From positions 43,323,368-43,386,617 of the forward strand of contig NC_057742.1 in assembly GCF_004010195.1 (NCBI RefSeq): a DNA stretch of 63,250 bases, given 5' to 3'. The translations under genes and the position numbers were made by a program. How positions within the stretch are numbered: the first letter of the stretch is position 1; each line of letters begins with the position of its first letter. Below are positions 1,501 to 29,639 of the stretch, in pieces. This DNA is from Chiloscyllium plagiosum. Taxonomy: Eukaryota. The notes beneath the pieces were generated by a model that saw only the letters and a program-made list of their open reading frames with translations, was not told where the DNA came from and searched no databases.

Positions 1501-2910
1501 ATCTCAGGACCAATTTGCTATTCACAACTAGCTGAGAGCATCTGAACATAATTAGTTACCATGTAACCACCCAGCCCTGTAAGTGGCTTGGATTTCTAAA
1601 ATGTTTTTCAGCTTTCCAAAAAGATAACTGGGTGGGATAGAGTGAAGAGCACAAGGCATCCCAACTGTGTTCTGCTTGTTAGATTATCCAGAGGGTTCTT
1701 TCCTGTGCAGTATTTTTCATAAATTATCAGAGGCTTTTTTAAACGTCAGTGCAACCCATTTGTGATTGATTGCTATTGTGTCTGAAGAGAAAATATCCCT
1801 GAAAATCCTGTCTCTTCCAAATTGACTATTTTCTAATACAATACAGCAAAAAAATTGCTTTTGCATTTGTGCACAGGCAGTTCCTTTTTTCTTTGGCCTT
1901 TCAGGTATTGACTTTCTTGATTCTAAAAAATACACACATCAACTCAAGAAAGCAAAATGAATGAGGAAGTAAATCGGGTATGAACAGAAAAAAAAACACT
2001 GTCCATGTACAGATAAGAATCTTATAATTTCCAAGCCCCAAGTCCAGTCCAACACTCAAACTTATTGGATGAATGTTCTTCATCTAAAAGCACAGATTAA
2101 TTCTGTCTTTAACTCCGTGTTTCCAAATTATTAGTTGACGTTATTCAGAGCAGTAAAACAACCTAAGCAATGTTGGTATGGCTCAAAGATTTAACTGGAA
2201 TTTCTGCTAATCCCCCAACAATGCTGCAGAATTGCATTTGTGCAGTGCTTTCTACAGTCAACTTTGAAAGCACTTAGTTATCACATTTCAAAACTGAAAA
2301 GTCTGTTTAGAAGAACTTTTGGATTTCATGCATTCAGGAAGCAGCCATCCAAGTTAGATTACATGAAAAGCATACAACAGCACCATGGAGTGGGAGGAAT
2401 CCCAAAGTCAGGACACCAGGAACAAGTCACATGCTAAGTATATATGACTGCAGTAGATAGTGGTTTAATTCCTTTTCAGGCATTCACAGGAGGTTTTCAG
2501 GATAGCATGCAGTGAAGGGGCGTGAAGAGAGAAACTATTTCTTTAATAGTGCATCATCGTTGCAAAGTCGACAAATGACAATCCGAGAAGAACAACTTCA
2601 AAATCCTGATACCTGTACTGTAACACAAACAATTAAAAGGAAGAGTTTTGGCTGAATTGCACTGAGAAGTCTAAACAAGCCAATCTCTCACAATAATGAA
2701 ATAGTCCAATCAGTGGAGATCAAGCCCAGCAGCTACTTGAACGTGATTGTTACGGTTTGGAGTGCTGTTTGCCACCCTACTTAAGAGGGTGTCTTCATGA
2801 GAAAGCCTCTCCATTATTTTACAGGATGTTCTGGCTCTCCAGCAATTCTTCTTATATTGTTAAATTCCAAATCAAAAATACAATTTAGCCAGATGTCAGA
2901 TCAAACTTAC

Positions 2911-2983
2911 ATTTTTATCATTGTTGTCTTTCTGTAGGATCGATACTACCGCTTCCTTGTTTGATCATTTAAAATGTTCGCTT
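2911..2983 (-). pseudogene. Repeat exon H (73 nt, degenerate): SEHFK*SNKEAVVSILQKDNNDK
   Basis: ttgcag acceptor, gtaagt donor, homologous flanks. Contains a stop and its length is not a multiple of 3. Confidence 0.55.
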
Positions 2984-3644
2984 CTGCAATTGATCACAAA
3001 CCACAAAATAAAAAGCAAATCAAAATAGTGTTTGGGTTTATAATTGGTTATCATTTAAATAAAAACTGGAGTCTCAAAATTCAACATTTCAAGTCCCAGT
3101 CAGCTAATTTTATTAAATAAGGTCATACTCCAAATGTAAAATTGCACAAGGTGATGTATACTTTTTAAAAATTCCTCAGGAAATTTTCAAGAAATGACTT
3201 TAAGGGCCAAAGCAGGTTTCCAGCATTGGAAGCAGCAGGTGACAACAGAGAAAAGGAGCAGGCGCAAAGAGTGAAGCTACTTCGTCAACAGCTTATGTTG
3301 CTGCATAGTCTACAAATATCAGTCTGAGATAAACTCAACGCCTTCATGTTCAACAGCTGCTTGTCCTTCACAAAGTGCTTAGCATTCTTGTTTCTACGGA
3401 TTAATGAGAAACTATGCAAGTAATTGAGAAGCTGTTTCTTCATGAATGTACTATGATCTGGAGCGGTGTCATGCCATCGTTTTAGTAGTATGTCTTAGAG
3501 CGCCATACACCACAGAAACATTTACATCTTCACGAAGAGATTCTGATGATCGAACATATGGCCACCAGCTCTCCAGGGAATCTCCTTTCATGTTACAGTA
3601 TTGCAAATGAAACATAATATGGTCACACAGTGGATCAAACTTAC

Positions 3645-3731
3645 TTCTTGACTGTCACTTCCTTATCAGGTTAGCTCAGATTCTCAAGCTCCTGAGAATT
3701 TCCAGAGAGTTTCGACTCAACGTCTTTGCAG
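3645..3731 (-). pseudogene. Repeat exon G (87 nt): CKDVESKLSGNSQELENLS*PDKEVTVK
   Basis: ttgcag acceptor, gtaagt donor, phase 2-2, one in-frame TAA. Confidence 0.65.
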
Positions 3732-4671
3732 CTGCAATTGAACATGAAGGACAAATTAAAACATTTCAAGCAAACACTTTCATCTACAATTAAAGCTGTT
3801 AAAATACCATGAACACTGAAGATTCTGAATTTCAAGCCTTCATCAGATGGTTCTATTAAACAGGTTACACACTAGATGGCGAGGATTTCTTAGTCAGCAT
3901 AAAAAGTGCGCCGGTATGCTCCCTAAGTATTGTTGCTTGAGGCTGAGATATCAACTCTTTAGAAGCCTTCCCACCAAGATGAATATAGTTGCTAGATTTA
4001 TCCATACACTTTTGAAAAAAAAAAGTAAATGTTGTAATTGTCCACTCCTCTCAAAGCATCCCTGTATTTGAACAGGATTAGGTTGTTGTGGACAATGCCA
4101 CTGCAGCTTCAAGATTATTTTTCTCAGTATCCTCGGGTGACTCCAATTCAATTTTTATCAGTTACCAACACCCTAGGACAATCAACCTTTCTAACAGAAG
4201 CAGAAATTGCTGTAGAAGCTCAGTGCATCACAGGACTCAAAAATATTAACTGTGCTTTCTCACCACAGATGCTGCCAGACCTGCTGAGTTTCTCTCACTA
4301 TTTCTTTCTTTGTTTCAGATTTCCAGCATCTACAGTTCTGTTTTATTTTAGCCTTTCTAAAATTCTGTCAAACTGCAGCTCACACATGTCTGAATTATAT
4401 TTCTTTTCACCATGAATTGGACATCAGCTCCCACTTTATATTATCTCACTAGGCCTTTGCCCCCATGAAGTTTGAACAGCGGTTTTATGGTAATTGGCCC
4501 CAGTCATTCTTCTGCTCTCCTTTCAGTGTTTGTGACTAAGGCTAACTTTTGGATTCCCTTTTAATGTTAGTTGCCAGTCTCATTTACTTCTTCAATTACT
4601 CTCTGAACTGCCTATGTTTAGCTTGGTTCTCGCTGGAGTTACCAATAATCCTATTCCTTACTAACATCAAC

Positions 4672-5953
4672 ATGCAGCATGTCTCAATGACTACCGCCCA
4701 ATGGCTCTAACTTCAGTGGTCATGATGTTCTTTAAAAGGCTGGTCATGGCATTAATCAACTGCAGCCTCCCCACTACTCTTGACCCTCTCAAATTTGTCT
4801 ACCAGATCCATGTCAGATGCCATATCACGTTCCCTTCACTCCTCCCTAGAACATCTTGATACCAAGAACAGCTGCGTAAGAATCCTACTCATTGACTACA
4901 GTTCAGTCTTCAACACTATTATCCCCTTGAGGCTGATTACTAAACTTAGTGATCTTGGTCTAAGCCCCACTCTCTGCAACTGGATCCTCAGTTTCCTGAC
5001 CCACAGGCCACAATCAGTGAAGATTGGGGATAATATTTCATCATCACTAACACTCAACACTGGAGCCCCCCAGGAGTGCAAACTCAGCCCCCTACTGTAC
5101 TCACTGTATACCCATGACTGCATCGCCAAATACCAGACTAATGACATTTCACTGATGACACCACCATAGTCAGTCGAATCTCAGATGGCAACAAAACAGA
5201 CTACAGACGGGAGGTGGCCGACCTGATAAAATGGTGCGCTGAGAACAACCTGGCTGTCAATGTAAGCAAAACCAAGAAACTCATCATTGACTTTTGGCAG
5301 GATGTTAACAGCACAGAGATGAAATGACTGGAGTGTGTCAATCTCCTGGGAGTGGTCATCCACAACAAGCTTTCTTGGACTCTTCATGTGAATGCACTGG
5401 TTACAAAGGCCCAAGAACATCTCTTCCTCAGGCAGCTGAGGAAATTTGGCATGACGGTGAATACCCTTGCCAATTTTTATAGGTGCGCCATCGAGAGCAT
5501 TCTGTCTGGATGTATCACTATGGTTTGGCAAATGTACCATTCAAGATCGGAGACGGTTACAGAGAGTGGTGGACTCGACCCGGACAATCACAAAGGCCAA
5601 TCTCCCATCTCCCAGGCTCACTGTCAAGGAAAGGCCACCAGCATTCTGAACGATCCATCCCACCCTGGCAATGTTTTTCTACAACCTCCACCATTGGGAG
5701 AAGATACAGAAGCCTGAACACATGCACTAACTGGTTTTGTAACAGTTTCTACCCTACTGTTGTTAGAATATTGAATGGACTCACAAACTCTTAACATTCA
5801 CCCATACCTGTGTTTTTTATTGTTTTTGCTGTTGTTTACCTGTTATTTGCTATTAGTGCTACTTGAATCTGTGATCTGCCTGTATTGCATGCAGCCAAAG
5901 CATTTCACTGTGTCTCAGTAAACGTGACAATAAATTCAATTCAATTCAATTCA
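4672..5953 (+). mobile_element. Rex1/Babar-type LINE, 5'-truncated RT
   Basis: [16 protein letters not shown]...[16 protein letters not shown]...[21 protein letters not shown]. Frameshifted, ends in an (ATTCA)n tail. Confidence 0.85.
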
Positions 5954-6962
5954 TGCAGCGAAATAGAGTTTTGTTTTTGCCACTATTTTCTGTTTGTGGA
6001 AACATTGAGACTGTAGCTGAACAATCTCCTCTTGGAAGGCACACTGTTATTTCATTGCAGTTTTGTCCAAACTTGTGCTCAAATTTACTTGTCCGCTTGC
6101 CCCATTGAAATTGACCCTTCTTCAATTCAGAAGTATTCTGGATTGTTCCTTGTTCACTTCTAAAGCCAAACTAACAATCTTATGATACAATGATCAGTAC
6201 TTCATTAAATGATCTCTGTCTGATATTTGATATATTGCGTACGTGCGCACAGGAGGCAGTGCAGGTTGAAGATATTGTTAGGATTATGACCTTTATAAAT
6301 CGGAGCATCACATTCAAAACAAAAAAGTTATGACAAATCTCTATTAAAGAAATCCTGATTTCCCCTTAACTCTAGTATTTAAGCACCATGCTTCAGGAAA
6401 GGATTTGAAAGATTGCACAAAAGTTTCACAAAAATATACCAAGTGATGAGCAATTAGACAACTATGTGGATAGAGTCTGTTTCTCTATAACATGATAGTT
6501 AGATTCAAGCGTAAACCCATGTTATAGAAAAAAATACACTTTAGAAACAACACTTGAAGTGTTGGTGGTGTAATTGTGTTACAGCCAACACACGTTTAAA
6601 AACTTTATGCTTTAGAAACAAAATCCCCAATTCGCCTATTGAATTACAGCAAATTCATGTTGACGAAATACACGTTATAGCAGAATGACCTGTTGCTTGA
6701 AGAAGCTTGGGCTGCTCTGCTTGGAGAAGAGAAGACTAAGAAGACATTTTACAAGTGTTCAAAATCTTGCGGGATTTGGATAGGACTTATTGGATAGATA
6801 AGAACATACAGTTCCTAATGGCAGACGACTTCAGAAGAAAAGGACACTGATTTGAGATGAGCTGCAAAACAAACCAGTACTGACAAGGAACTGTAATGCT
6901 CTATCTAACAGTGACAGCTTTAATTGAGATCTCCAAAAGGGAACTACAATTTTTGAAAGGAG

Positions 6963-7272
6963 AGATTAGATTGCATTACAGTGTGGAAACAGGCCCTTCG
7001 GCCCAACAAGTCCACACCGACCCACCGAAGCACAACCCACCCATACCCCTACATTTACCCCTTACCTAACACTATGGGCAATTTAGTATGGTCAATTCAC
7101 CTGACCTGCACATCTTTGGACTGTGGGAGGAAACCGGAGCACCTAGAGGAAACCCATGCAGACACGGGGAGAACGTGCAAACTCCACACAGTCAGTCGCC
7201 TGAGTGGGGAATTGAACCTGGGTCTCTGGCGCTGTGAGGCAGCAGTGGTAACCACTGTGCCACCGTGCCGCC
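6963..7272 (-). mobile_element. tRNA-derived shark SINE (HE1-like)
   Basis: tRNA-like head (cagtggt..cactgctgcctcacagcgccagagaccc.ggttcaattc) and CR1-like tail ending in (taatc)n. Near-identical to 12370-12668. Confidence 0.85.
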
Positions 7273-7464
7273 CAGAGGTTTTGCAATATTACCTAGTACA
7301 ATGAGTTGGGAGTGAATGTAGACAAGTTCCTCTTTGAGAGCTGGTACAAACATGATCAAATGTTTGTATAACATTGCATGAACTGCCAGCAATCCAGCTA
7401 TTTCTTACCAGTTTGTTATATTCTGAATAATGACTAACATAGTCACACTTGCAATTAAACTTAC

Positions 7465-7542
7465 TTTACAATTATTTCACTTGCTCCAGGAGAATACCTA
7501 TTTTCATTTTCCTCAGTGCTTGACCTGTCAATATTTCTAGAA
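7465..7542 (-). pseudogene. 26-aa repeat exon F (78 nt): SRNIDRSSTEENENRYSPGASEIIV
   Basis: ttgcag acceptor, gtaagt donor, open in phase 2-2. Confidence 0.75.
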
Positions 7543-8133
7543 CTGCAATTGATCAAAGCACACAAATTAAGTCATTTAAAACAAGCAAACTGACCCAGAA
7601 TTAAATCCAACCCAATTTAGCAAAAAAAATATAGACTTGGGATTCAGTATTTCAAGCCTCGTCAACTAGTTTTGTTAAGTTAGTCAATGACTACACAATA
7701 TGGTAGTTTTGGTATGGATTCATTTGAATTCCATCAGATTTCAACAGGACACCACAATGAGGCTGTGCTGGGGGAAGGAGATGGAAGAGACAGAACAGGG
7801 TAAGAAGAAAAAAAAACTCTTCGGTATTTCACCCATTTCTGGGTTATGCAACAACTAAATACCGAAAAACAAAACTAAACCAACGATTGAAAATCTTTGG
7901 ATGTTTTATGCTGATTCAACATTACCTAATCTCTCAAAATGAGCCAAACATTTGAGAACCAGTCAAGCAGTTGCTTCATGTGATTACTATAGTCTGGACT
8001 GGTGTTCACTGCACTGCCATAGGATACCTTCCTGAGGCAATCCTGACATAATCTTACAAAAACTATCAGCAGTTCCCTGTCACATTATTAGATCCCAAAT
8101 GCAAATGTCATTCTGACATCAGATCAAAATTGC

Positions 8134-8211
8134 TTGCCAATCACTCCTTTAGTTTCTGACACACTTAAATTTCCATCTCCTTCACAGTGGGAAATGTCAA
8201 CACTTTCACAG
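8134..8211 (-). pseudogene. 26-aa repeat exon E (78 nt): CESVDISHCEGDGNLSVSETKGVIG
   Basis: cgcag acceptor, gcaatt (GC-type or mutated) donor, open phase-2 frame. Confidence 0.65.
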
Positions 8212-8984
8212 CTGCGACTTGTCATAAAGAACCAGTTAAATCATTTTAAATGTGCACATGATCACAATTTTACTATTTGGCTTCTTATCAACATCTAGAT
8301 TTTTAGCTGTGAGGGCAGGAGCCAATGGATGGATGCGGAGTAAAGAGGTCAAATAAAGAACCTCTGCACTGAGACAGAGGAAAGAACATCCCAAATGCAA
8401 GGATTTAAGTTTAACTTCCTCATCTTTTAAGAAGAAACTCAACATCTTTAAGGCTACAGTCAATTCAACCCTCATGAGCACAACTTGTAACTCAATGTTT
8501 GATTCAAAATGCTAACATAGTAATTTCTCATTGCTGAAATTCACTGAAGCTTAATGTTATATTAGTCACCATTGACGATTTGTTAAAAAGATTATTTTAT
8601 TATTTTTTTCTTTCCTGCCCCTTAAATAGTTCTGAGTTTATTTATAGATCTGGGCATAAACCCAGGATTAATTCCACGTCTCTGGCTCAGAGCAGTATAA
8701 TAACGTCTCAATTTAGGCTTCTATTGATCAATGACACCAGGAAAATTGTGTGAATGTGATGCTGCCTATATTCAAATCACCGTGAAAGCACTTTATAAGC
8801 TTGATACAAATAAATAGCCAATACTTGGGAAAGTGCCTGACTCCAAGGATACACATGGCAGCTGGGCAACTTAGATTATAAAAAATGCAAAGCACTCAAT
8901 GGCAGCACTGAATGGGAGATATACCTAGGCTAGGAAACCAGGAGCAGGTCACACTCTTAATTGTAGCCATATGTCTTCAAATGT

Positions 8985-10035
8985 CACAGGTGCTTAGAGG
9001 GCATGGAATGCAGGGGGAGCTGTCAATTTTGATAAACAATTGGCTTGATGGAAGGAAGCAGGGGGTAACAGTGGAAGGAGGCCTGTGCCTAATAGAGTCC
9101 CTTGGGGTTTGTGCTGGGCCCATTGCTGTTTGTTATCTATGTCAATGACTTTGATGAAGATGTACAAGGTATGATTGGTAAGTTTGCAGATGACACTAAA
9201 ATAAGAGATATCGTGAACAGAGAGAAAGAATATCAGAAATTGCAGCAGGATGTTGATCACCTGGGAAGTGTACCGAAAATGGCAAATGGAGTTTAATATA
9301 GATAAATTTGAGGTGCTACATTTGGAAAGTCAAATCACAGCAGGGGTTTCATAATGAATGGTAGGACCTTAAGGAGTGTAGTGGAACAGAGGGACCTTGG
9401 AGTTCAGGTGCACAGTTCTCTGAAAGTGGAGTCACAGATAGACAGAGCATAGGGTATCGAGTATTGAGAATTTGGGAAGTTGTGTTGCACAGTTGTTCAG
9501 GACATTGGTGAAACCGCACTTGGAGTATTGTGCTCAGATTTGTTCATCTTGTTACAGGAAGGATGTTATTAAACTGGAAAGAGCACAGAAGAAATCTACA
9601 AGGATGTTGCTTGGATTCAACAGTCTGAGTTAGAGGGAGGTGTTGGACTTTGTTTCTTTACAGCTTAGAAGACTGAGGGAATATCTTATAGAAGAGTATA
9701 TTATCATGAGAGGCATGGATAGCATGAATGCGCTCCGTACTTTTCCTATGATTGGGGAATGAGGACATCAGTTAAGATTAGAGGGGAACAAGTAAAAAGG
9801 AACCTGTGGGCCAACATTTTACATAGGTGCACATTTGGACTGAACTGCCTCTGGAGGTGGTTGATGTGGGTACATTAACAGCATTTAAAATGCATTTGAA
9901 CAAATACAAGGATATGAAAGAATTAGAAGGATATAGGCCAAGTGCAGGGAAATGGGGTTATCATTGATGGACATTTGGTCAGCATGGACCAGTTTGGGCC
10001 AAAGGGCCTGTCTTCATACTGTAGGACTCTCTGAC
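8985..10035 (+). mobile_element. CR1 LINE 3' fragment
   Basis: GPLLFVIYVNDFD...KFADDTKI RT motifs, decayed. Confidence 0.85.
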
Positions 10036-10480
10036 ACAACGGTGAACTTAGAGGAAGTTTGGGTGGTAATGGTGGTTGCCGTGGTTGGGGGGAGGGGGGA
10101 TATGGAGAAGACGCACATGAACAGGAAATAGGAAGAGAAGAGATGAGATTGGGTGGAGGAGAGCAACCCATTTTTATGGTATTTTCATTGTAGCCACATT
10201 GTTCAGAAATATCACCCCAATATTGATCAGCAAGCAATTTCCCATCTAAATGTTTTGGATGCTTCAATATTTGTATTATTATTTAAGTTAACTCTGTCTA
10301 ATTTTAAATTCAAGGAAAGCAGTCCAGCAGCCTCTTTAATGTGAATGCTGTAGCTGGATGGCATTTGTTGCATTGCACAAAAACCTTTGAAGGAATCAAT
10401 GGTTCTCCAACATTCTCTTTTCACATTGCTGCATTCCAAAGGAATCAGGATTAAACCACATCAAAATCACATCACAGTGC

Positions 10481-10557
10481 TTCCTAATGGTTACACTCAT
10501 CTCTGGCAAACATGCTTCCCTTCCTCCTGACAATGTGGACTGCCAAAATGGCTGCAC
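10481..10557 (-). pseudogene. 26-aa repeat exon D (77 nt, degenerate): CSHFGSPHCQEEGKHV/PEMSVTIR
   Basis: Matches the repeat pattern and flanking intron motif. Both splice sites are decayed and there is a 1-nt deletion. Confidence 0.5.
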
Positions 10558-10749
10558 CCACAAGTGGTCGTGAAGCACAAATTAATTACAGGACTTCCAT
10601 CTGCAAACCACTTGCAAACACTTGAAAATAAGTCTCAAAGAGAAAAAGGGTCAGCAATTTAAGTCCTCATTTGGTCAAAATCCAGAACTATAACTACACT
10701 AGATGGTCTGCTTTCCAAACCTTCTGAGAAAATATTTAGGTCACTCTCG

Positions 10750-11060
10750 ATTAGATTAGATTAGATTAGATTCCCTACAGTATGGAAACAGGCCCTTCAG
10801 CCCAACAAGTCCACACTGATCTTCCGAAGAGTAACCCACCCAGACCCATTTCCCTCTGACTAATGCATCTAACACTATGGGCAATTTAACATGGCCAATT
10901 CACCTAACCTGCACATCTTTGGACTGTGGGAGGAAACCGGAATACCCAGAGGAAACCCATGCAGACACGGGGAGAATGTGCAAACTCCAGACAGACAGTC
11001 ACCCAAAGTTGGAATTGAACCCGGGTCTCTGGCGTTGTGAGGCAGCAATGCTAACCACTC
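10750..11060 (-). mobile_element. HE1-like SINE
   Basis: Same family as 6963-7272, with (GATTA)n tail. Confidence 0.85.
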
Positions 11061-11426
11061 CAGTTTGGTAGGCTGATGCATTTGTGGGTGGGGTGGTGTT
11101 GTTGAGAGGATAAGCATTTTAACAGTGTTGCAAGGTACACTATACCAAGATCTGAGAGCCAATCCGTTTTCAATTGAAGATCTTTGGATGTTTTCTACGG
11201 ATCAAAGGCTGAATGTTGTCATCAATATTGACTCTTGGCAATGACCTTGGAGAGGGTAAATTTGTTTTTTTAATGTGAGTTTTATCACCTCGAATGGTAT
11301 TTGTTAGACTGCTGTAGGATCCATCACAGGGTGGTTCCGGCATAACCTTACAAGAGCAACTGTCTTTCCAGCAATTTCTTTTCATGGTATGTATTGTGAA
11401 TGAAGCACAGGATGGATCAAACGTAC

Positions 11427-11504
11427 TTTGAAACATCTACTGTCTCTTTTGGTGGACATAGTTTTTCAATGTTCTCAGAGTGTGGGTTATCAAGGGGTTC
11501 AGAC
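11427..11504 (-). pseudogene. 26-aa repeat exon C (78 nt): SEPLDNPHSENIEKLCPPKETVDVS
   Basis: tacag acceptor, gtacgt donor, open in phase 2-2. Confidence 0.7.
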
Positions 11505-12254
11505 CTGTACTTAGATAGAAGGTTGACCTTAAAGGTATTTTAAACAAGCGCTTGCACACAAAAGTGGCTTACAAACAAAAGGAACATTTAAATACTTAGT
11601 TTGGAGTCGATAGACCATTAAAAATAGGCCCATTTGGCCTTTTGGGATAACACTGCCTTTCGGTCCTGGCTGATATGTTTCTCAATCTTCTTTGCCAGCT
11701 TTCACCCAGAAACCTTGAACCTCTTTCAAATCAGGAACTTATCTCTGTCTAGGTAGATTTAATGACTTGGCCTCCAGGCCATGAGTTCCGCAGCTTAATC
11801 ACCCCCCGACTGAATAATTCTTCCTTATCTCAGTTCTAAAGGTTGGACCCTTCACTCAGCAACTGCACCCACACGTCCTAATCTCCACTACTAGTGGAAA
11901 CAACTTCTCTATTCCATGTGCAATCTTTCTCAGCCACTCAGAATTCTGTAATTTTCAGTGAGATTCCCCACCCAACCCAAACTCCATGCCATCCAGACCC
12001 AACGTCTTCATATGACAAGCCCTCTACAAATTTTCAAGTCCTTATCAACCAGATTTGTTAAACAGCCTACACTCCAGATATATGTAATTCCAATAGATCG
12101 TGTCTATTTTTTCTCTCCATGTTTTCTCAGTGTTAGCAATTGTGCCTGGCAGAGGGGCTGGAGAGCTGCAAGGAAGAAGGAATGGAAAAGAAAATCCTGA
12201 CACATAATAAATGTGAATGAGTTTTAAACACTAACCAGGGATGCTGAAATGCAA

Positions 12255-12770
12255 CCAAAAGAGAAAATGCTGGAAAATCTCAGCAGGTCTGAACAGCATC
12301 TGTAAGGAGAGAAAAGAGCCGATGTTTCAAGTCTAACTGACCCTTTGTTAAAGCTAAAAAAGGGGGTTAGCACAGTGGTTAGCACTGCTGCCTCACAGCG
12401 CCAGAGACCCGGGTTCAATTCCTGCCTCAGGCGACTGACTGTGTGGAGTTTGCACGTTCTCCCCGTGTCTGCGTGGGTTTCCTCTAGGTGCTCCGGTTTC
12501 CTCCCACAGTCCAAAGATGTGCAGGTCAGGTGAATTGGCCATGTTAAATTGCCTGTAGTGTTAGGTAAGGGGTAAATGTAGGGGTATGGGTGGGTTGCGC
12601 TTCGGCGGGTCGGTGTGGACTTGTTGGGCCGAAGGGCCTGTTTCCACACTGTAATGTAATCTAATCTAGACTCGAAATGTCAGCTCTTTTCTCTCTTTAC
12701 AGATATGCTGAGATTTTCCAGCATTTTCTCTTTTGGTTTCAGATTCCAGCATCCACAGTAATTTGCTTTT
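12255..12770. mobile_element. Fold-back Penelope-type insertion with a SINE (12370-12668, +) at its centre and a 14-bp TSD
   Basis: Inverted arms ccaaaagagaaaatgctggaaaatctcagca / tgctgagattttccagcattttctcttttgg. Direct repeat atgctgaaatgcaa at 12241-12254 and 12771-12784. Confidence 0.8.
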
Positions 12771-13017
12771 ATGCTGAAATGCAAGCAATTTTTCAAATTT
12801 TCTATTGAGCTGATACAACTATTTTGGAAAAATCACTCTAATCACAGCAGTAATGCGAATCTGTGGTCTGGAATGGTGGGGTTTGCTGTAGCATCATGGG
12901 ATGTTTTCAAAAGGAAGTTCATATATAAATCTTATGTAAACTGCCTGCTCTCCAGCAATTTCTTATCATACTCGGTTCTGACCAAAGCAGAACTTAGTCC
13001 TACTTGAGTGAACTTAA

Positions 13018-13095
13018 TTTTTGATTTCCGTAATGTTTTCTGGAGAAAGTGAACTTCCAGTTTTTTTCCAGATTGAGCTGTCAAGATTTTCATTT
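13018..13095 (-). pseudogene. 26-aa repeat exon B (78 nt): NENLDSSIWKKTGSSLSPENITEIK
   Basis: cttag acceptor, open phase-2 frame, donor mutated to ttaagt. Flanking intron is homologous to the other units. Confidence 0.65.
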
Positions 13096-14088
13096 CTAAG
13101 GTTAAACAATTAGAAAGCATAAATTGGCATTTAAAACAATCAAAGGCATCTACATTTAAATGTATGAAAAAATAAACCCAAAGATGCAGTATTTCACTTA
13201 GTACTTAGATTTGTTTTAAAAAATGGTCATTTACTAAGTGTATGATTGCAGTATATGGTGATTTTATTTTCTTTCAACTTTCACAGAAGTTTGCAGAGCA
13301 CCATAGTCTGTACGTTTTTGGGGTGGGGAGGGAGCATTAGGTGGGGCATGTAATAATATTGGGAAGCTGAAAGTTTGGTATTCAATTTCTTCAATGTTTA
13401 CCCTCATTGCATAGTCCAATGCTTCGAAGCGAACAACTGACAACCCGAACATTGAAGGGCAAGAAATGTTCTATTAAAGACAGTGTGTTAATGCACGCTC
13501 AAATATTCATTGCCAATCAACTGGGAGGTGGGAGGATTGGGAAAATGGCAGAAGGGAGTCTGGCACCTTCCCATAATTATGCCATGTTGATATAGACCAC
13601 TTCTCTATCACATTTTGACACTCTATGACCTCTTAGGCCTGTCTCCCTTACTTCTATAATGGTGCCTGCCTTCACAGCCTCAGTGATAATCAGCATGAAC
13701 ATTAGGCATAAGAAATGTCCTGATCTGTCATCCCTCTCACTGAGCTAGCAGCTCTTTACATTTCCTGTAATGTAAAAGAACAAACTGCTGAAGCTGATAA
13801 TCTGAAAGAAAAACAGATGTTGTTGGAGAAACTAAATAAGTTTCCAGTATCTTTGAGGAGAAAGCAGAATTCATGTTGAGTCAAGTGACCCGTCCTCAGA
13901 AATCTGAAATTCTGAATAAGTCACTCAACTCAAAACTTTCCCTCGACAGATGCAGCCCAGATCTAATATGTTTCAGTAGAAAGTCTCTACAAAATGTTCC
14001 TGAAAATGTCAGCACTTCAGCAATTGCCTATTACATTGTTGTATTCTGAATAAAACATTATTTTGTCACACATTGGATCAATAATTAC

Positions 14089-14165
14089 TTTCTGATCTCT
14101 CAACTGTCTCTGGAGGCATTGGATTTTCATTTTCCTCATAGCTTAGGCTGTCATTGTTTCTGCTG
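14089..14165 (-). pseudogene. 26-aa repeat exon A (77 nt): SRNNDSLSYEENENPMPPETV/EIRK
   Basis: ttcag acceptor, gtaatt donor, 1 nt short of 78. Clear homology to 7465-7542. Confidence 0.7.
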
Positions 14166-15610: not shown

Positions 15611-18600
15611 TATCGCTACACATGGTACTAACTGGGTGAGAGGATTGTGTGATAACTTCAATGTTGATGCATGAGAGGTGAGCAAGCTAACTTATTCCCT
15701 TGGGGGTCACGTGAAAAGTGTTGACAGACATCCAGCAAAATAACATTGAAGAATCTTTCATTTGAATTGAAACCTGAACTCTCTTTCTCATCCCAGATTG
15801 TGCTAAGTCTGCTTAGTTTCTCCATTAATTGCATAGTTTTCATCTGTTCGTGAAAAATTATAAAATTGTGAGGGGAATGAATACGGTAAATAAACAAGAT
15901 CTTTTTCCTTCTGTTTTGGAAGCCATAACTTGAGGGCATAGGTTTAAAGGAAGACAGGAAAGATTTCAAAGGGGGTAAAAGGGCAACATTTTCACACAGT
16001 GAGTGGTATGTTTATGGAATGAGCTGGCTTTGGTGGTTTGTAGTTAACAATAGCCCCAGGAGTTCTGCACTTGTTTGAGAGATCTGGAAATGGATTCTTA
16101 CTCTGAGGTTACATTAGGTTGTTATATAAATGCATAACCTTTCTACTTGTCTTTCTGATGGGGTAGAGACAGCTTTTACTCTCTCTCAAACCTGTGCACC
16201 ATTTGTCTTCAATCTGCTTTGCTTTGTTACATTATTATATGGAGTTTATTCTGTTAAGTAAATAGTTTTGACAGGAGCTTTGCCAAAGTGTACATGGGTT
16301 TTAAAGACATTGGTGAGTTTCTGTGTCCCAGGAAGTAGATTCATTGCAGTTAGTAATAGAAAAAAAACCAGATAAAATATAATTTTGCTCATTGTATATT
16401 ACATCTTTAACTGGAAAGATTATATGATGTTATATGAACCTTGGAATTTAAACACCTTTTAAATGGACTCACTGCTGATTTACTTGACACACTATACTGT
16501 GATACTGAAACAACTATAATCTGGGACAATGATGAAATACAAATGGACTGGAACTGCAACTTTTCCAAAAAGAAACTAGGTAGCAGGGCGAGATTGTAGG
16601 CGAAGCTCAGAATACAGAGGCATTGCAAACCCAAACGACCATGAACACAGCTTCTTGAGATGAATTATGATGTGGTTCTGCACTATTCAGCTCTGATCTG
16701 TGATCACAACCAAAGCTGCTCTGTCACACCTATGTGATTAGGGGAAAAATAATATCTGCTGGAAAGCAACTACAAAAATCTCTTGGAATACGGTGACATA
16801 GAATCAAGTGAAAGCTGCAATACCTCTTCATTGGGCTTCTTGCTTTCTTTCAAAAGATGGCAGCTGATTTTGGCAATCAGCTATCAGCTACCACTGGATT
16901 AGATGACATCTTGAAAATGGCTCCTTTGTTTACATTTCCCTATCTCCTACATTTGCCCTACCACTTTTTTAAAAGAACAAATGTGAGTGAGATTTCTTTA
17001 GTGCTGTCCAAAGGATAGCTGTGCTCCTGCCCCTGTGCAACTTCATTCTGATATCTGCCTCTCAAAAGATCTGAATCTATGCTCACCTACTGGTGTAGAA
17101 ATTAAGCAGGGCTCATAATAGAATGACTAACTATTCAATTGTTGCAAACCAATGAGGGTAAGATTCTCAAACTGCTGTTATCACAAGGGTGCATTTGGTG
17201 CCACACTCAATATTCAATATAACACTTAATATGTCTGCTAGTCCACAATTTCTCTCTGTTACTTTAAATAATAGTGTGTTCTGTGTATGTGCCTGTGGTT
17301 TGTTTCTATTGATTTCTGTTCCTCTTAATGTTTATGATCAAAGGTAAAGTAATGTAATTCTTCTCTCTCCATAAGGACATTGTTGCTGGTTTTCCTCTGA
17401 GGTCAGTACAAAAGTCTATGAGTTCATTCAAGGCCCTATACTTTATGGTTAAGTTCCACCCCAGCCAGCTGGTAAACATGGAGATTTGAGTATTGATGAA
17501 AAAACGTAATTTTTTTGAAGTCTTAGTCCCGTACTCATCAGGACGCTCTCAAGTATTCCAATGCAAAAGGGGAAAACATTCACTCTGGATGGGTAATGTG
17601 TGCTGATTGGTATTGACATGGAGAATGGACCAGTTATGTTTGGCATTAACTGCCAAGACTTGTTGTGGCTTGTTTTGATTCGACTAAATAGGTGATGGCC
17701 ATTCTCTGATTCATTTCGCAGGGCATTACTTTGATTAGTCAGTCAACCTGCAAAATTAAAATTTAACAAAGTTTAGCTGTCAACTATCCATCACCATCTG
17801 ACCAGTCGATGTTCCATTAATAACATCTCTATCAATCCTAATGCACTTTCCAACCCATCAGAACTATTTTCTTGCGCCGTTTCCCTTTATGTCAATATTC
17901 TTGCAGCTTTCCAGATGAATTAAAGGCCCCTTTTTTTACAGTAATACCCAATTTTTTTGTTTCCAAACGAATACGGGAACCCTTTGTGAATGGAATATCC
18001 AACATACAGCTGGTATGATTAAAACGGAATCTAGTTTTAGGACTTGAGATGATTTAACCCCATGACAAGCCCATTTTGTTCTTGCAAATCCTCTTTGAAT
18101 ATTGTATCAGTCTGGCTGTTTGAAGACAAGTTTGGAAAATTTATCATTTCTGTTAACTGCTGTTTAATAAATTGCTGGAACTGTGGAAATTGCATTCTGT
18201 CCAATCATAAAACTTTGATACTTTGTGAACACAGGAAATATGCACAATGCAAATAGAAATCCCATTTAATGCTGCCTGGACAATACTGATAAACTTAAAT
18301 TTGTGTTTATCGAGAAAGAACTGAGATCTTAACTGGGTCACTGTCATCTAATATATTGAATTTAAACTTATGTCTATCTTTAAATCCTTCATGTCCTTGA
18401 TCGAAGTGCTCTCTTGGATCATCTATACACACATTCTGTTCTTTGGTTCTCTGATTGCTTTATGTCTTTCTTTTGTCCATGTTTCTGATTGAGCCCCTGA
18501 ATTGGCTGTATGTTATTGATAAACTTCCTCAGATGCCCTGTGGCACTCAATCTCTGTCTTTTAAAGATTGCTTAAAAGCCTGTTTCACGTTTCTGGTCAG

Positions 18601-19997
18601 CATTCCTAACTCTTCTGATACATGACAGCACCTTTCTCTCATTTGGCATTGAGTACAACCTTTTCCAATTAAAATGCCATGAAATATGAACATGTAATGT
18701 TTCTTTTAGCAGATTTAAGTGATTCTAATTCAACCCAATTCAGAGTACTGAATTATACATCCAGGTTAAGACTGTTTTTGTTGAACTATATCGATTTTGA
18801 CAAGTTTGCCACCCCTTCATGTTCTTAAATATTGGAAACAGACTAACACGAATGGCACTGGGTTCTATCAGCCCAGTCAGGACAGGCTGCAAGGTCATTA
18901 GGAGGATACTAGGGTGTAAGATGACAAGGGAAGGAAGGAGTTGCAGTGCCTCTCATATTTCCATCTCCATGGTGTTTTATTGATCTCAAAACAGGGAAAG
19001 GATGGCCTCTCAAGTGGCCAATGTAGAGTCTGTTCCCACCAATGCTGGCACTTTAGTAGCAGTAGGTAGGTCCTACATTTTGTGGGAGTCTACCTCCTGA
19101 ATCCTAGAGGCATGCCTGCAGACTCAGGATGCCCGTCCCAAACAAATACCATATGCCTGTAATATTAAAACTCTTGAATATGAAGTCAATGGATCTAAAC
19201 TCTCACATTGCAGTAACATTTGTTATTGTCTCAATGTAACTTAAAATGGAATTTGCTTGAACTTGCATAACTTGTTGGACAATTCTTTGATTAATGCATC
19301 TCATTAAAACTGAATGGGCCCATTTCCATGGTTAGCACTGGTGGAGTGGAACAGCTAATTTTTGCTCATTTCTATTAGTTAACAGTCCTTTCAGAGCTAC
19401 TTTTGAGCAGAGGAATGTGTTGTTTATGACCTACATCTGTGGCAATTATCATTGAAATATTCTGTAACTTACCAGATGCTCCTGATATACTCAGACAGTT
19501 CCCTGCAATGGTTTACATGTTAAAGATTTTTTTAACTTATTGACTGACCTGTTCTAATTCATTATATTCTCTTTCTGAGTGCCATGTATCACTGCCAACT
19601 CACTTTTTATTTCTCAGGCACGCAGCTTTCCTTTATTATGCATTTTCAAATGACTAACTGAGGGTCAGAGCAATTTGATAAGATGCAAGGAGAGACATTC
19701 TGAAATGTAAGCATGTTCTTCTAATCTCCGTGACATACACCCAGATTCCAAACATAATCGCTTTAGACATGCTCCAATCTAGGTTGCCTAAACTGAGTTT
19801 AGAAGTGTGATAAGAAAGTACATATTAGTTTGTAATATGAGAGAAACTTGGAGTGTCAGCAAAAATAAAGTCAATAATTTTATGGCTGATAATATTATTG
19901 AACGTCTTAGCTTTATCTGCTTGTGACTGAATGTAGAATTAAAGGGAGTTAATTTCAAATTGAATATTTAAATGTAATCAGTGCTCAGTATTCAGTT

Positions 19998-20748: not shown

Positions 20749-20872
20749 GTGAGTTTTTTTTTGTTCAATCTACCTTTGTTCCCCTCTCAATGTTAGTCTC
20801 CTCCAGGAATGTAAAAAACTCAGACATCATTTCATCAGCATTAATGTTTACTTTTTTGTTTTCTTTTTAAAG

Positions 20873-21185
20873 ATGCCCAGTCGGGGATTAACTTGAATCA
20901 ACCAGAGGGAAAGAGGCAGAGAGCGGCCTTTCTCAAAGGCACTCTGAAACTGACCTGTAAACCAGCGGGTTCGATCTTGGCAACTTCTACATGAGTTGGG
21001 TCAGACAGATTCCCAGACAGGACCTGGAGTGGTTGGTTAGCTACTATAGTTCATCCAGCAATAACTATGCCCCGGCGATTAAGGATCGATTTACTGTGTC
21101 CAAAGACACTTCAAACAATATTTTCACATTGGATATGAAGAGCCTGAAGATCGAAGACACCACCATCTTTTACTGTAGAAGATAT
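20873..21185 (+). pseudogene. IgM VH exon, frameshifted
   Basis: AQSGINLNQPE...TLKLTCK, then a 1-nt deletion at ~20961 gives TGA at 20992. The shifted frame continues [76 protein letters not shown]1 also has compensating indels. Confidence 0.95.
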
Positions 21186-21224
21186 CACAGCGAGAGGAAC
21201 CAAGGGAGGACCCTTTTAAAAACA
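21186..21224 (+). other. VH 23-bp-spacer recombination signal sequence
   Basis: CACAGCG (21186-21192), 23 nt, TTAAAAACA (21216-21224), immediately after the FYCRR codons. Confidence 0.85.
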
Positions 21225-21347
21225 GCTAAAGGGAACGTTTGTCAAATCCATTGTAAACTGACGGTCAGTGCAAGTTTTAAATGCAGTTATACCAACTGTG
21301 ATTGAAGCAGACCTCAGGTTGCCACTAACAAAACTATCAAATAGGAA

Positions 21348-21559
21348 GTTAAAAATCACACAACACCAGGTTATAGTCCAACAGGTTTAATTGGAAGCAC
21401 ACTAGCTTTCGGAGCGACGCTCCTTCATCAGGTGATTGCCTGATGAAGGAGCGTCGCTCCGAAAGCTAGTGTGCTTCCAATAAACCTGTTGGACTATAAC
21501 CTGGTGTTGTGTGATTTTTAACTTTGTACACCCCAGTCCAACACCGGCATCTCCGAATC
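21348..21559. mobile_element. Palindromic Penelope-type insertion in the V-D interval, 12-bp TSD
   Basis: ~85-bp near-perfect inverted arms plus a unique tail. TSD atcaaataggaa at 21336-21347 and 21560-21571. Confidence 0.85.
21400..21471. ncRNA. Minimal type-I hammerhead ribozyme motifs on both strands
   Basis: CTGATGA-A-GGAGC-GTC-GCTCC-GAAA-GCTA-GTG at 21440-21471 (+). Mirror copy on the minus strand with CAC/GTG stem I. Confidence 0.75.
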
Positions 21560-21737
21560 ATCAAATAGGAAATGTACCATCAAAACTAACAAACTAGGTA
21601 ATACAATGGGACAAAGTTTTGGGCATGTCTTATGTACTGCTGATGCTTCTATCAATTAAATGTTTGGGCATAAGTTAGTTTTTGTATATCTGACAGCTCT
21701 GTGTTATGTAAACAATGACATTAAATTTGAAATATGA

Positions 21738-22050
21738 TTAGATTGGATTCCCTAAGAAAGTATGGAAACAGTCCCTTCAGCCAAACAAGTCCACACCAAC
21801 CCTCCGAAGAATAACCCACCCAAACACATATTCCCTCACAGTAATGTGTCAAACACTATGGGAGGGACCAATTCACCTGGCCTGCATATCTTTGTACTGT
21901 GGGAGGAAGCTGAAACACCTAGAGGAAACCCGCGTAGACACAGGGAGAATGTACAAATTCTACATGGGCAGTCACCCCAGGCTGAAATTGAACCTTGGTC
22001 CCTGGCGCTGTGGGACAGCAGTGCTAACCACTGAGCCACCATGCCGCCAT
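21738..22050 (-). mobile_element. HE1-like SINE in the V-D interval
   Basis: Same SINE family, more diverged. Confidence 0.85.
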
Positions 22051-22118
22051 GCAATCAGTACTAAATATCTATTCCACATGAAAAATGAGACCCAGAGTAT
22101 AGAACAGATGATGAGTGC

Positions 22119-22194
22119 AGCTTCTGTACTGCTCGGCATCGCTGTGATACGACAATACAGGGATGGCACTACAATTATGATCAATACAAAAACA
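22119..22194 (+). other. DH segment (20-nt coding core 22147-22166) flanked by two 12-bp-spacer RSSs
   Basis: AGCTTCTGT-12nt-CGCTGTG | ATACGACAATACAGGGATGG | CACTACA-12nt-ACAAAAACA. Both spacers are exactly 12 nt. Confidence 0.85.
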
Positions 22195-22492
22195 TATTCA
22201 GCCCACATTGTTTGAAACACGTCATTGTTTACTTCTACAAACCATCTAAACTCATATTAGTTCTGTGGGGTTTTATGCAAATATCACTGTTTAATATGCA
22301 AAGTGATGATAATTATTGGTGCACCTGTTGGTGATTTTGAGAATCAGCTCATATGTTACTCTATCAAGTATGTAACGATATAATCATTTATCAAGAATGA
22401 TCAGTATCCATTAGTGCAATTATAATGTGATGAAGATTTATTGCGTCTTTATTTTGCCCGTGGCAGATTTTTAGCTTGTTTTATGCAGAGCC

Positions 22493-22577
22493 CGTTATTG
22501 TGTGGCCCAGACAGAGAATGTAACACTATGACTATTTTCCTTACTGGGTCCAGGGACCATGGTGAAGGTGACTACAG
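22493..22577 (+). pseudogene. JH segment (coding 22531-22577) with 22-bp-spacer RSS
   Basis: CGTTATTGT-22nt-CACTATG, then ACTATTTTCCTTACTGG...ACCATGGTGAAGGTGACTACAG|GTAAG (YFPYW...GTMVKVTT). 1-nt deletion in the WGQG motif. The heptamer reads CATAGTG from the J side, so the critical CAC is lost. Confidence 0.9.
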
Positions 22578-23329
22578 GTAAGAACCTTAAACTTCCTTAG
22601 TCTCTTTTTTTAAAACTTTCTATTCGTGTGAACAATTCCTGAATTTAATGAAACTCAGATTCTGCGCTGAGCTTGGTTTGGTTCTAATTGATTTTTGTTA
22701 CAACTGATTGTAAACTTAAATTAACTTCCAATAAATAGCTAAAGTGGTGATAGTGGATTCAGTTGCTTGGTGGATTGTTTTAAAATCAGATGGGCATTAT
22801 GTGTGGCTGGTTACCTGAAAAACCTTAACTGTCTTAATCATAAGGTATAAATAATACTGAATGTCAGTGACACCCACTATCTGTGAGTTTTATTATTGAA
22901 AACAAATGCTATGATTTTAAAGATGTTTGAAATATTACCAAACATAATGAAAATATGCTAAAATACCATTATTAATTTCTTGAATATATTTCTCAGTTGC
23001 ATACTGTTCTTAACATGATTGTATTTTGTTGATAAGTTTGCTAATTTTGTTGATGACAAGCGCTTTAGCGAGATTATCTTTCAAGATTACTTTTAATTAC
23101 TAATATTTATGAAGTTCTTTGTTTTTCCTGAATCGTTTCTGCATTTGGCAAACTCATGTGACAATTGTTTTTTCTGCTTGATTGAAAACATTATATCTGT
23201 TTGTAACTGTCTGAAGAGCAACTTAAGGCAGAAATATGGAAACATGAGAAATGAATAAAAACCTGACTTTTTTAGTGCATTGACTTTAAAAAAAACTCAG
23301 ATCTAATTGTAAACTAAGTAAAGTCTGTT

Positions 23330-23525
23330 TTGAATGGAGGTTTGCTCGCTGAGCTGGAAGGTTCATCTTCAGATGTTTCATCACCATACTGAAGCTGCAT
23401 CTGAAGGCTCACTGATGATGTTATCTAGTATGGCAACGAAACGTTTGCAAACTAACCTTCCACCTCAGCAAGCAAATCTACACCCAAAACCTCTACCTGA
23501 GCTACAAATCTTCTCAAAACTCACT
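23330..23525. mobile_element. Penelope-type fold-back fragment with hammerhead core in the J-C intron
   Basis: CTGATGA(23412)-TGTTAT-CTAGT-ATGGC-AAC-GAAACGTT. Partial inverted arms, related to 1-170. Confidence 0.6.
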
Positions 23526-26500
23526 AGTCTGTTTTGAGTAACCTCATTCAAACTAAAATTTGGGACTAAAATTTTAAACTGCCAAATTGATCAGATTTTG
23601 TAATTGAGACTAAACTTATGATAACATGTGATTATAATGTGTAATGTTTGTCCATTGAACTAATGTTGTTTTGACCTTAAAGTGATTAATCAATATATGC
23701 CTCCAACTGCTCTACTGTGCACTGCGCAAAATTGACATGATCAGGAAATGTACAGGTTTTAGTAAATTGAACGGTTGCCGAAAATGTTAATGTTTTAAAT
23801 ATTATTAAATAAGTCACCTCATAAACAAGACTGCTGTTGTGACTTCTTGTTTCTATTCAATTTAGTTATTAGCTTGCTTGATGGTGAGCAATTTTATTGA
23901 ATTCCAATTTGGGATTTTTTTTATGTGAGGTTACATTATGTTCTATGTTCTGTTGAAAATATATGCAGAGCCAGTTCTGCTGCAAACACATCATTGTTCC
24001 TCCGTGCTATGATTTAATGGGTTTTTTTTTCTGTTGAGGACAGAATGTGCTTGGATAATTTTTTAATATCTTTCTGAAGCTGTTTCTGGTTTCAACATTG
24101 TTTTTTCTTTCTGTTTACATGGTTGGTGACAGTGAATCGCTCCGGTTTCCTCACTGAATGCAACTAGCATGCGAGTTGAACTTTCCTGAAGTGAAAGGCA
24201 AATAGCAATGGTTTTGGAAATGAAGGAAAAAAACTTTGGGCACGATTTTTATTTAGAAGTAATAATTGAGGATTAATCGAATCCACTCCATGCATTCCAA
24301 ATTCAGAATTCACTTATCTACTTCAATCACAAGGTATTTATTTAAGTAGTTTACAAGTCACAGAAAAATATAAATACAATTTAAAAAAATAATGTACTAA
24401 AAGTTCTTGCTATTGAGTAATAATGCCATGACTATGACATCATTCATCAAGAGTCACCTTTCAATTCCACTGTACACTACACACAGATTTTGCTCCTGGA
24501 AAAGATCATTGGCAAAAACAATTTAAAAATTCTGCCCGAAATATTTCGGTGAAGAGCAGATCAACTTCACTGCATTCACCATTTCACAAGTAACTTGAAT
24601 TAATTAATTATGTCCCTGATTAAACTAGATTTGAAGGAAAAAACTAAAACATTAAATGAGTGATTTGGTCTGAACAGTTCTGGCTTTAGGTGTTCCCAAT
24701 CGGTTTGTTTTAAATAAATAGTTATATTTTACAACAACATACCAACTGAAGAATCATTCATTAGGAAGCAACTGCTATATTGGATTATGTGAGCAAGGCT
24801 AGATTTCGAAATAATTAAAATAAATATCATGAACGCATACAGGAATACTTGCTGTGAATCCAGAGAATGGGTTTTATGTCAATTCATTCAGACATATGCA
24901 GATTGCACAAGTTTACAGAAGACAGGAACTAAAGGGTAATACAGCACATTGTTAATACAAATGGAAAATAGGGTAATATTTATTTTAAGTAATATACTTG
25001 ATCGATTATTGCAATGTAGCAACCTAAAGGAGATTACTCTGGCGATCGTTAAGTGTGACGATCATTTATTCAGACATCAGTTAAAGCGGGCAGAAACAGC
25101 TTTTCAATCCACACATCTTTTAAAATTCATTACAAGTTCATTACAAAGAAGCGAAGAAAATGAACTTGCCATTGTAATGCAAACCTGACAGTAAATATAT
25201 GCCCGAATTTATTCAACAGAAATGCTGTTCCACAATGGAATGCGGTATTGGCTTTGTGCAGTGCGTGCAAAATCTCCAACGTTCAAGAAATGTTTTAAGA
25301 ATAAGTAAAAATAATTTAGAGAATAATCCCATTTTCTCCGGAGCTGTCCATAACCTAAATAATTTTGTTAATTACAATGACTTAATAAGTTTATTAAATC
25401 AGTGGTTATCTGTATTCATTGCAAAAAAGTTCTTGTTCGTATTAATGCTTATCCTTTGGTTAATTCCTCTTAGAGAAGTTAAATTACAGCGAATACATTT
25501 GACATGATGAATTAAGCAGCTACATCTGCTAGGATCAAGACTGTTGTACAGTTGGTTTCTGTGCTATCTCCGACAGTCCTGTCAACTGGTTCTGACCATT
25601 TGTAAATCGTCTGGTTCGGACACCTGAATTTCAGACAGTTAAATTTCATCTGGCTCTTCAGAACGACTTTTAGCTGCCAGAAATGTAATATTTGATGAGG
25701 TGCCTCAGAACTGAGAGCCTTGACTAATTGTTAGAATCAGAACAAACACTTCAGTAACAAAAGGTAGATTGCAAGAGTTTTGAAATCGGTTATTTGCAAC
25801 AACGGATATTTGACTGAGCGAGGCAGAAAGAAATATGCTGCAAATTTTATTTGCACCACAATTGTTCGTGAATTATTTAGTGGCACAACGTAGAATCAGA
25901 AATTATTTTGCTTTTTTTTGAGAACCTATCATCAGCTTTTAATGTTACTATCAATGGTATAATACAATCTATTTCAATCTAAGTAGACCATGCACAGGGG
26001 TAAGAGGAAGTGAGTCCTAAGTGGAATTCCAGTGATAAGGGAATTTAATCCTTATGCAATCCCTAGTTTTATTCCTCTATATTTTCCATAGAGTTTGAAC
26101 AATTCAGAAATACTATCAAAGTATTCTTGGATAATTGGTGAAATGTTACTTTCATTGTGTAAACCTTCTGTAATAATCTCGGGTTGTTGGAAGGTGTTAA
26201 TAATTAACATGTTTTATGCACTGTCAAACAGGTAGACTGTTGTCCGAAATATTGTCGACCTCATTGTGTTCAGGTCTGTTGTGATGTCGTAGAAGGTGTC
26301 CCTGACTCTCAGCCAGGTGGCTTGTGTTCATTTACAACGTGTTAGAGAGGTATGTAATACCATTTCTTATCAGGTTAATTCGGGGCAAAAAAAACATTGA
26401 GTTCTTTGGGTGTTCGAATTCCACTCACAGAGACATGTGAAATCTATTCAATCATTGTCCTGACTTGTGTCTCTTACATATTAGACAGAAATTTGGCGGG

Positions 26501-28489: not shown

Positions 28490-29065
28490 TCTGAAAACAT
28501 TGGATGTGGCATGGTTGGTCAATTTGCATGACACCAAAATTGGTGTTATAATTAACATTGACCTTTATCTAAAAGAATAACAAGATCTTGATCAGATGGG
28601 TTAATGGGCTGAGGGGTGGCAGGCAGAGTTTAATTTATATGAATATGGCGTGTTGCATTTTGAAAATACAAATCATTTCACAACTTAAGAGTTAATAGTA
28701 GGGCCTGGGGTAGTGCTGTCGAACAGAGAGTCCTGGGGGCTCAGAGACATAGATTCTTGAAAGTATTGTCTCAAGTAGCTGGCATGGTGAAGGTGTTTGG
28801 CATGTGTGCCTTCATTGATGAGAGCATTGAGTTTAGGGTTGGGATATTGTGTTGCAACTGTTCTGGATATTGGAATGAACTGCCAGAGGAAGTGGTAAAT
28901 GCAGAGACAGTTACAACATTTAGAAGACATTTAGGAACTGGATAGGTCTGGATGAATGTAGGCCAAAGGCAGACAAATGGAATTAGTTTAATTTTTGAAC
29001 TCTGATCAGCATGGATGAGCTTGACTGAATGGTTTGTTTCTGTGCTGTATGACTTTGTAACTCTC
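28490..29065 (+). mobile_element. CR1 LINE fragment
   Basis: Decayed RT and 3'-end motifs (WNELPEEVV). Confidence 0.7.
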
Positions 29066-29639
29066 TGACTTTATGGTGGAGTAGGCTCCAAGTTGGAAGG
29101 TGGTGAGCTAGTGAGGGTTTGGAGTGGTAATATGGTGGAGCTTGAGTTGATAGGCTGTGAGGTATTGAGTGGCTGCTGGGTAAGCTTGTATACACATAGT
29201 CAGGCAGGGTGGCATCAAGGCAAATGGCAATAGTCACAAAGATAATTTGGTCGAATTGTGCTTGGTAGGTGAGGGGCAGTTTGAGCTGAAGTGCAGGAGG
29301 TCTGCCTGTGCTAAGCTGGTTAGTTGGAGGTGGGCACGGTGCCAGGCTGGTTCAGGGGTAGAAAGTCACTGTGATGAAGTGGCAGGTGGATATGATGTTG
29401 AAATGCAAAGCTCACAATCTAGCGAAGTGGCAAACAGTAAAGGACAGCTGGGTATGAAGCTAGGATGCAATGTATATAGGTTGACTTGGGTAAGTTGAAA
29501 GGTCAGTGATCTAGGGAGTAGAGAGAGGTTGTGAAAATAATGTTGCTAGGTCCAGTCAGGGCCAGATTCACCACAGACCAAGTGCAGGGTGGCAGGACTG
29601 AAATTGACTGAAAGGAATTGAGATGACATGTCCATCTGG

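Follow-up and report, generated by a model that had tools for sequence, protein, structure and literature searches.

Copies of an exon together with its intron, arising by tandem duplication, can feed alternative splicing (PMC9013439); the available passages of that account mention neither RGL1 nor RALGDS. In the available parts of a study of the RGL family, copy number differs among lineages, with RGL4 found in mammals (PMC3141262). Shark IgM heavy chains are encoded by miniloci, of which the passages available report 15-200 V-D-D-J-C clusters per genome, pseudogenes included, and describe the distribution as not well known (PMC2435157, PMC12227049). Here we analyse a 63,250-nucleotide (nt) stretch of the genome of the shark Chiloscyllium plagiosum (RefSeq assembly GCF_004010195.1, contig NC_057742.1, forward-strand positions 43,323,368 to 43,386,617), hereafter the window, in which a minus-strand array of short exons lies beside an IgM cluster. 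RGL1 is a signalling gene whose product is a Ral exchange factor, and on sequence similarity the array is an amplified exon of this known gene, internal to its REM domain. The window array is, with high probability, a broken and displaced piece of shark RGL1 in which a phase 2-2 exon from within REM was tandemly multiplied. It likely spread as a neutral passenger while IgM clusters duplicated, and it likely makes no protein.

The initial annotation had taken the units for an unrecognised repeat protein standing on its own, a reading that gives way to their match with REM-internal repeats of shark RGL1. When 1.84 billion representative proteins were searched with a protein profile built from 28 units, four matches reached an expect value (E) of 0.001 or better; of these, the best three are shark proteins and two are named RGL1. 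The highest is isoform X14 of RGL1 from the cloudy catshark, Scyliorhinus torazame (P0121, XP_072367689.1, E 2e-56), followed by RGL1 of the zebra shark, Stegostoma tigrinum (P0122, E 1e-21), an uncharacterised protein of the zebra shark (P0123, E 8e-8) and an unrelated endonuclease (E 3e-4). Searches of proteins by word index, a method that is weak for short queries, gave no matches for either the unit alignment or one decayed RasGEF exon. The catshark protein combines RasGEF_N, RasGEF and RA domains and carries 16 repeats of 21-26 amino acids; the zebra shark protein has RasGEF_N and RasGEF, with nine repeats in its longest isoform. These repeats lie between the two halves of REM, at the place held by one short segment in six RALGDS proteins, and in RALGDS of C. 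plagiosum the homologous segment is one 72-nt phase 2-2 exon. Because the repeats replace this single small exon within REM, the window array is best understood as a tandem amplification of one RGL1 exon.

Each of the three closest relatives differs from the window in its own way. The predicted catshark RGL1 has the same 26-amino-acid unit at the identical place between the REM halves, but it is a full-length protein with REM, RasGEF and RA and its repeats have been recently homogenised, whereas the window holds eight decayed units. In the predicted zebra shark RGL1 (XP_059505548-52; P0122, P0128 and P0130-P0132) the unit classes and their order match those of the window and its paralogues, and the frame is open through REM and most of RasGEF, yet the protein is truncated and has no RA domain. 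RALGDS shares with the first unit class the first bases of its 72-nt exon and the same donor, but the exon is single, and no array was found in 120 kb around the gene. Compared with tandem exon duplication as presented in the available passages of PMC9013439, the units here stand in series in the predicted proteins and are not mutually exclusive. The initial annotation also suggested that symmetric exons could be spliced combinatorially. The phase 2-2 symmetry holds, and cassette splicing is likely in the intact relatives, the predicted zebra shark isoforms X1-X5 varying in the presence of a complete first or last unit and, at a tandem acceptor, in a single residue.

Other pieces of the same gene adjoin the arrays at paralogous loci in C. 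plagiosum, which are cited here by working contig labels. A decayed REM exon lies upstream of the array units at C26 and C8, and a post-array exon and two RasGEF exons lie downstream of the arrays at C10, C16 and C8, with up to 78% identity to zebra shark RGL1; these RasGEF exons are broken and of the RalGDS type. In a tree of RasGEF exons that includes zebra shark RGL1, the decayed exons stand apart from RALGDS at 95/98. An AlphaFold model of zebra shark RGL1, built on a shallow alignment with few rows over the repeats, has a mean predicted local distance difference test (pLDDT) score of 53.5, with confident helices flanking a coil at pLDDT under 50, and a fold search with this model gave no match at E 0.001. 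The repeats of intact shark RGL1 are thus modelled and predicted as an acidic, low-confidence coil between REM helices. Our best guess is that they would act as a spacer, with cassette splicing setting its length.

Within the window, all eight main units lie on the minus strand where the initial annotation had placed them (Table 1). Its description of shared flanking intron sequence is confirmed by a profile search in which about 250 nt of exon and flanks are homologous among the eight, and the four units it had reported as open, 78 nt long and in phase 2-2 are indeed so (13018, 11427, 8134 and 7465, each unit being named by its first position). The unit DNA profile was trained on the window units themselves, so that its E-values are circular. 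An independent profile, trained solely on the repeats in the two annotated RGL1 proteins, was used to rank 2771 six-frame pieces, and window units took ranks 1-4: 7465 at E 6e-6, 8134 at E 3e-4, and 14089 and 13018 at E 0.2-0.3. Unit 10481 stood at rank nine, and 11427, 3645 and 2911 were absent among the matches listed. An independent DNA sequencing run confirmed 7300-8414 with 3 letters differing.

A ninth unit, put forward as possible at 1859-1922, did not survive comparison. The unit-profile search found no match there, the acceptor is absent at the matching place in four of four paralogous loci, and a GT donor occurs in none of five loci, the window included. The view that this copy is decaying was correct: AG, GT and an open frame come together in only two of the eight units (11427 and 7465), the other six lacking a canonical site or the frame. 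With these six defective units, and with no REM, RasGEF or RA exon in the window, in the 80 kb downstream or in the 20 kb beyond its end, the window copy fails as a functional RalGEF gene.

Of 37 exons of 78 nt, five have an in-frame stop in the phase-2 frame vs 37 and 31 in the other frames. A neutral simulation on the unit tree gave an expectation of about 24 stop-bearing exons vs the five observed (P about 0.001), and a conservative star tree gave 19. Since stops are fewer than the neutral expectation, the frame was kept while the units diversified and the array was built. The initial annotation had proposed two further measures, the ratio of nonsynonymous to synonymous substitution rates (dN/dS) and the conservation of exons against introns. 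Between loci, since dispersal, dN/dS is 0.91 (59 pairs), and about 1 where window units are involved (1.05, 10 pairs); the exons, at an identity of 0.80 vs 0.78 and 0.80 in the flanks, are kept no better than their surroundings.

Copies of the units are spread across the genome. The 7465 unit with its flanks was found at 40 or more places, the scored ones at 77-83% identity, window included (the best 40 of 45 candidates being scored), and another unit class had 147 candidates genome-wide, of which the best 40 were scored. The unit profile gave 134 matches over 32 regions; 114 of them span both splice sites, with AG and GTAAGT carried and a modal length of 78 nt (48 of 114), and 37 pass for AG, GT or GC, frame and absence of stops, though nine near-identical copies, all from a single seeded search, inflate this last count. 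In the unit tree the grouping follows position in the array and not locus, which places the building of the array before its dispersal and supports the serial duplication of exon plus intron that had been proposed from the window. Unit order is kept over kilobases of common intron among loci. Longer arrays are present at C10 (15 matches) and C16 (13 matches), with no IgM block in the stretch examined. C26 was considered as the parent from its splice-site pattern and was ruled out, having five unit matches and no RasGEF exon.

Several other observations were made at these loci. The stretch C26:52181496-52181639 matches residues 1-48 of catshark RGL1 isoform X14 at 54% and sits 57 kb upstream of the decayed REM exon and the five unit matches. 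The first array units form fold-back (inverted) duplications at C8:17.81 Mb and C101880, broken retrovirus-like gag, pol and env frames adjoin several array fragments on C8, C18 and C101880, and a degenerate satellite of about 2 kb with a 27-28 nt period occupies C10:89069445-89071577.

Family searches located an intact RALGDS at C30:38.74-38.80 Mb and one other RGL gene at C37, with no array in 40 kb of the latter. No intact RGL1 was found in the assembly with catshark and zebra shark RGL1 queries or in searches for the RasGEF, REM and RA families, and the gene seems to be lost from C. plagiosum. A COLGALT gene on C11 has three units and three decayed RA exons at 70-100 kb from its last exon, and dispersed RGL1 pieces occur on at least nine other large contigs. 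Because RGL1 neighbours COLGALT2 in human, the likely home locus is the one on C11 beside the COLGALT gene, where only ruins of RGL1 are left. The intact COLGALT last exon matches human COLGALT1 structures (E 8e-26); the label COLGALT2 rather than COLGALT1 is preferred because of an ARPC5-family gene on C11, and no RGL1 remnant was seen within 30 kb upstream of the ARPC5-family exon.

Many array fragments travel with a broken COLGALT last exon and an IgM cluster. Collinearity with the window extends over array, COLGALT block and IgM C region at two places on C11 and one on C8, as expected if the array had been co-duplicated with Ig clusters, which the initial annotation had raised. The COLGALT exon and the last IgM C exon each have 74 candidates in the genome (best 40 scored each). 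The head-to-head arrangement with IgM is real in the window but is not the usual layout: the array is convergent with the IgM 3' end in all five other chromosome-anchored clusters where both parts are listed no more than 25 kb apart. The two passenger blocks meet at an identical junction at the C11 home locus and in the IgM copy on C11; in the window the IgM cluster lies between them, from which we infer inversions in the window. The RGL1-COLGALT block has diverged by about 20-25% vs 6-11% for the IgM constant exon. The IgM cluster of the window is itself broken, with frameshifts in V, J and the first and last C exons and a stop in another C exon, and its second constant exon was not recognised at 36190-36520, the sole stretch translated for it. 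Behind the IgM constant exons, at 41069-41430 and 43546-43907, lies a 362-nt inverted repeat (95% complementary) that is also present in other IgM copies.

Table 1. Features of the window (positions are those of the whole 63,250-nt stretch)
Feature	Position	Strand	Description
RGL1 repeat exon	14089..14165	-	77 nt (one short), AG/GT, tandem acceptor; class of the zebra shark 27-amino-acid unit
RGL1 repeat exon	13018..13095	-	78 nt, frame open, donor lost (TT)
RGL1 repeat exon	11427..11504	-	78 nt, AG/GT, frame open
RGL1 repeat exon	10481..10557	-	77 nt, acceptor lost, frameshift and stops; tree sister is a unit of the C11 home locus
RGL1 repeat exon	8134..8211	-	78 nt, frame open, AG/GC, weak donor
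RGL1 repeat exon	7465..7542	-	78 nt, AG/GT, frame open
RGL1 repeat exon	3645..3731	-	87 nt (87-90 nt class), one in-frame stop
RGL1 repeat exon	2911..2983	-	73 nt, frameshift and stop; last unit; tree sister is a unit of the C11 home locus
Non-unit	1859..1922	-	intron sequence common to paralogous loci; no support as an exon
COLGALT exon	16414..16670	+	broken copy of the last coding exon, likely COLGALT2; acceptor lost, frameshift, stops
Passenger block	16026..19158	+	79-82% like the 3' end of the C11 COLGALT gene
IgM heavy-chain cluster	20872..38520	+	V, J and three C1-set exons seen; pseudogene
Second passenger block	43915..45217		next to the 16026-19158 block both at the C11 home locus and in further copies linked to IgM; here the IgM cluster lies between

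These results can be arranged as a history. At the outset, the place that holds a single 72-nt phase 2-2 exon in RALGDS is filled by 16 repeats in catshark RGL1 and by nine in zebra shark RGL1. The symmetry of each unit would allow its addition or skipping without loss of frame, and the units would have provided a spacer of adjustable length, predicted as a disordered loop between the two REM halves of a Ral exchange factor. In the present assembly what appears to be left of RGL1 is the ruins at its likely C11 home and the pieces dispersed elsewhere. A rearranged array with the COLGALT last exon may then have joined the 3' end of one IgM cluster, the joint unit being copied many times, and inversions would finally have turned the array and the IgM part of the window into their head-to-head appearance. 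The widest form of this account is that an RGL1 exon became a long, alternatively spliced REM spacer in sharks, that the gene died in this lineage, and that a piece of its locus fused to the IgM cluster which founded most of some 70 clusters, leaving a passenger that is a neutral tag of when, and in what order, IgM miniloci multiplied outside the ancestral antigen-receptor region; we consider its chances about even.

The reading of the window array as a dead passenger piece of RGL1 has several points to answer. The dN/dS values are noisy, the non-coding frames having given 0.50 and 0.83, and their pairs are not independent; between C10 and C16 the ratio is 0.55 (4 pairs); and the five stops observed are somewhat fewer than the nine expected for neutral decay since dispersal. 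The RasGEF-exon tree joins the decayed exons to zebra shark RGL1 weakly (72/74) and holds no bony-vertebrate RGL1; the whole-protein RGL1 searches used a stricter first look, and a gap in the assembly could hide an intact RGL1. The equal candidate counts for COLGALT and IgM are suggestive only, and most IgM matches lie on short contigs, where linkage cannot show. The test of window units by RNA is also weak: no RNA run was listed as containing 7330-8320, and over 7300-8990 run X5 gave five reads, all under 95% alike, and X6 and X7 gave none from a small fraction of reads.

The window array might be active as a small gene of its own or as a non-coding transcript, co-regulated with IgM through a common head-to-head promoter. 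Its layout in the window, the four units open at 78 nt and the slight shortage of stops would all suit such a gene. We think it highly improbable, given the six units without canonical site or frame, the want of REM, RasGEF and RA exons in and near the window, exons that are kept no better than flanks, a partner IgM cluster that is itself broken, the convergent layout of the other copies, and the failure to find a splice junction over 7300-8990 (one junction tested, in 2-6% of two single-cell runs). A better case, though still an unlikely one, can be made for one of the dispersed paralogues, at C16, C10 or in unassembled sequence, as a working derived RGL1-like gene of which the window is a pseudogene. 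Units are intact in 7 of 11 cases at C16 and 5 of 12 at C10, the ratio between these two loci is the low one given above, and a derived, truncated RGL1 is annotated in the zebra shark. Set against this, the RasGEF exons at C10, C16 and contig C95301 bear stops or frameshifts, later RasGEF exons were not found at these three places, and the REM, RasGEF and RA family searches brought up no further RGL gene.

A dispersed transposon or satellite that merely resembles exons is scarcely credible as the origin of the units. Their abundance, from 40 to 147 candidates per unit genome-wide, and flanks as well conserved as the cores might suggest a mobile or satellite origin; but unit order persists over kilobases of common intron, AG and GTAAGT, the modal length of 78 nt and a single reading frame are kept, and Tandem Repeats Finder reports nothing over the array. 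The initial annotation held that a match to such elements with no conservation of frame would tell against a gene; what was found is a frame bias and a match to the exons of annotated RGL1 proteins, which refutes that origin.

Taken alone, the window copy is a pseudogene fragment of an ordinary kind, and the interest lies in what it belongs to. A 9- to 16-fold tandem amplification of an exon inside a folded regulatory domain, as seen in the predicted shark RGL1 proteins of the databases, seems not to have been described, nor does a dead RGL1-COLGALT block riding with many IgM clusters. Our literature search found no account of either, with the proviso that these loci could appear in the supplementary gene tables of papers on shark genomes or IgM. 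The passages found in papers on shark IgM miniloci contain no RGL gene or flanking passenger, and RGL/RalGDS has no matches in the available text of PMC12227049. Because the passenger block diverges faster than the IgM constant exon and rides with many clusters, it is a candidate neutral clock and tag of common origin for the miniloci, and could mark how shark IgM miniloci multiplied and spread, which is an old question.

Two other identities for the units were tried and rejected. SP100 and SP140 were considered on account of their 78-nt exon, and this idea failed, for SP110 as well: the units gave no match below E 1 across 110 kb of the HSR/SAND locus on C13. A tail of the NLR or zinc-finger kind was set aside as well, no such long exon being among the open reading frames listed. 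Two HSR starts and three SAND exons cluster at the C13 locus (12.13-12.21 Mb), which likely holds SP100/SP110/SP140-like genes. An intact single-exon frame of 312 amino acids for a rhodopsin-family receptor (7tm_1, E 9e-19) lies at L014:8430-9365, some 30 kb ahead of the window.

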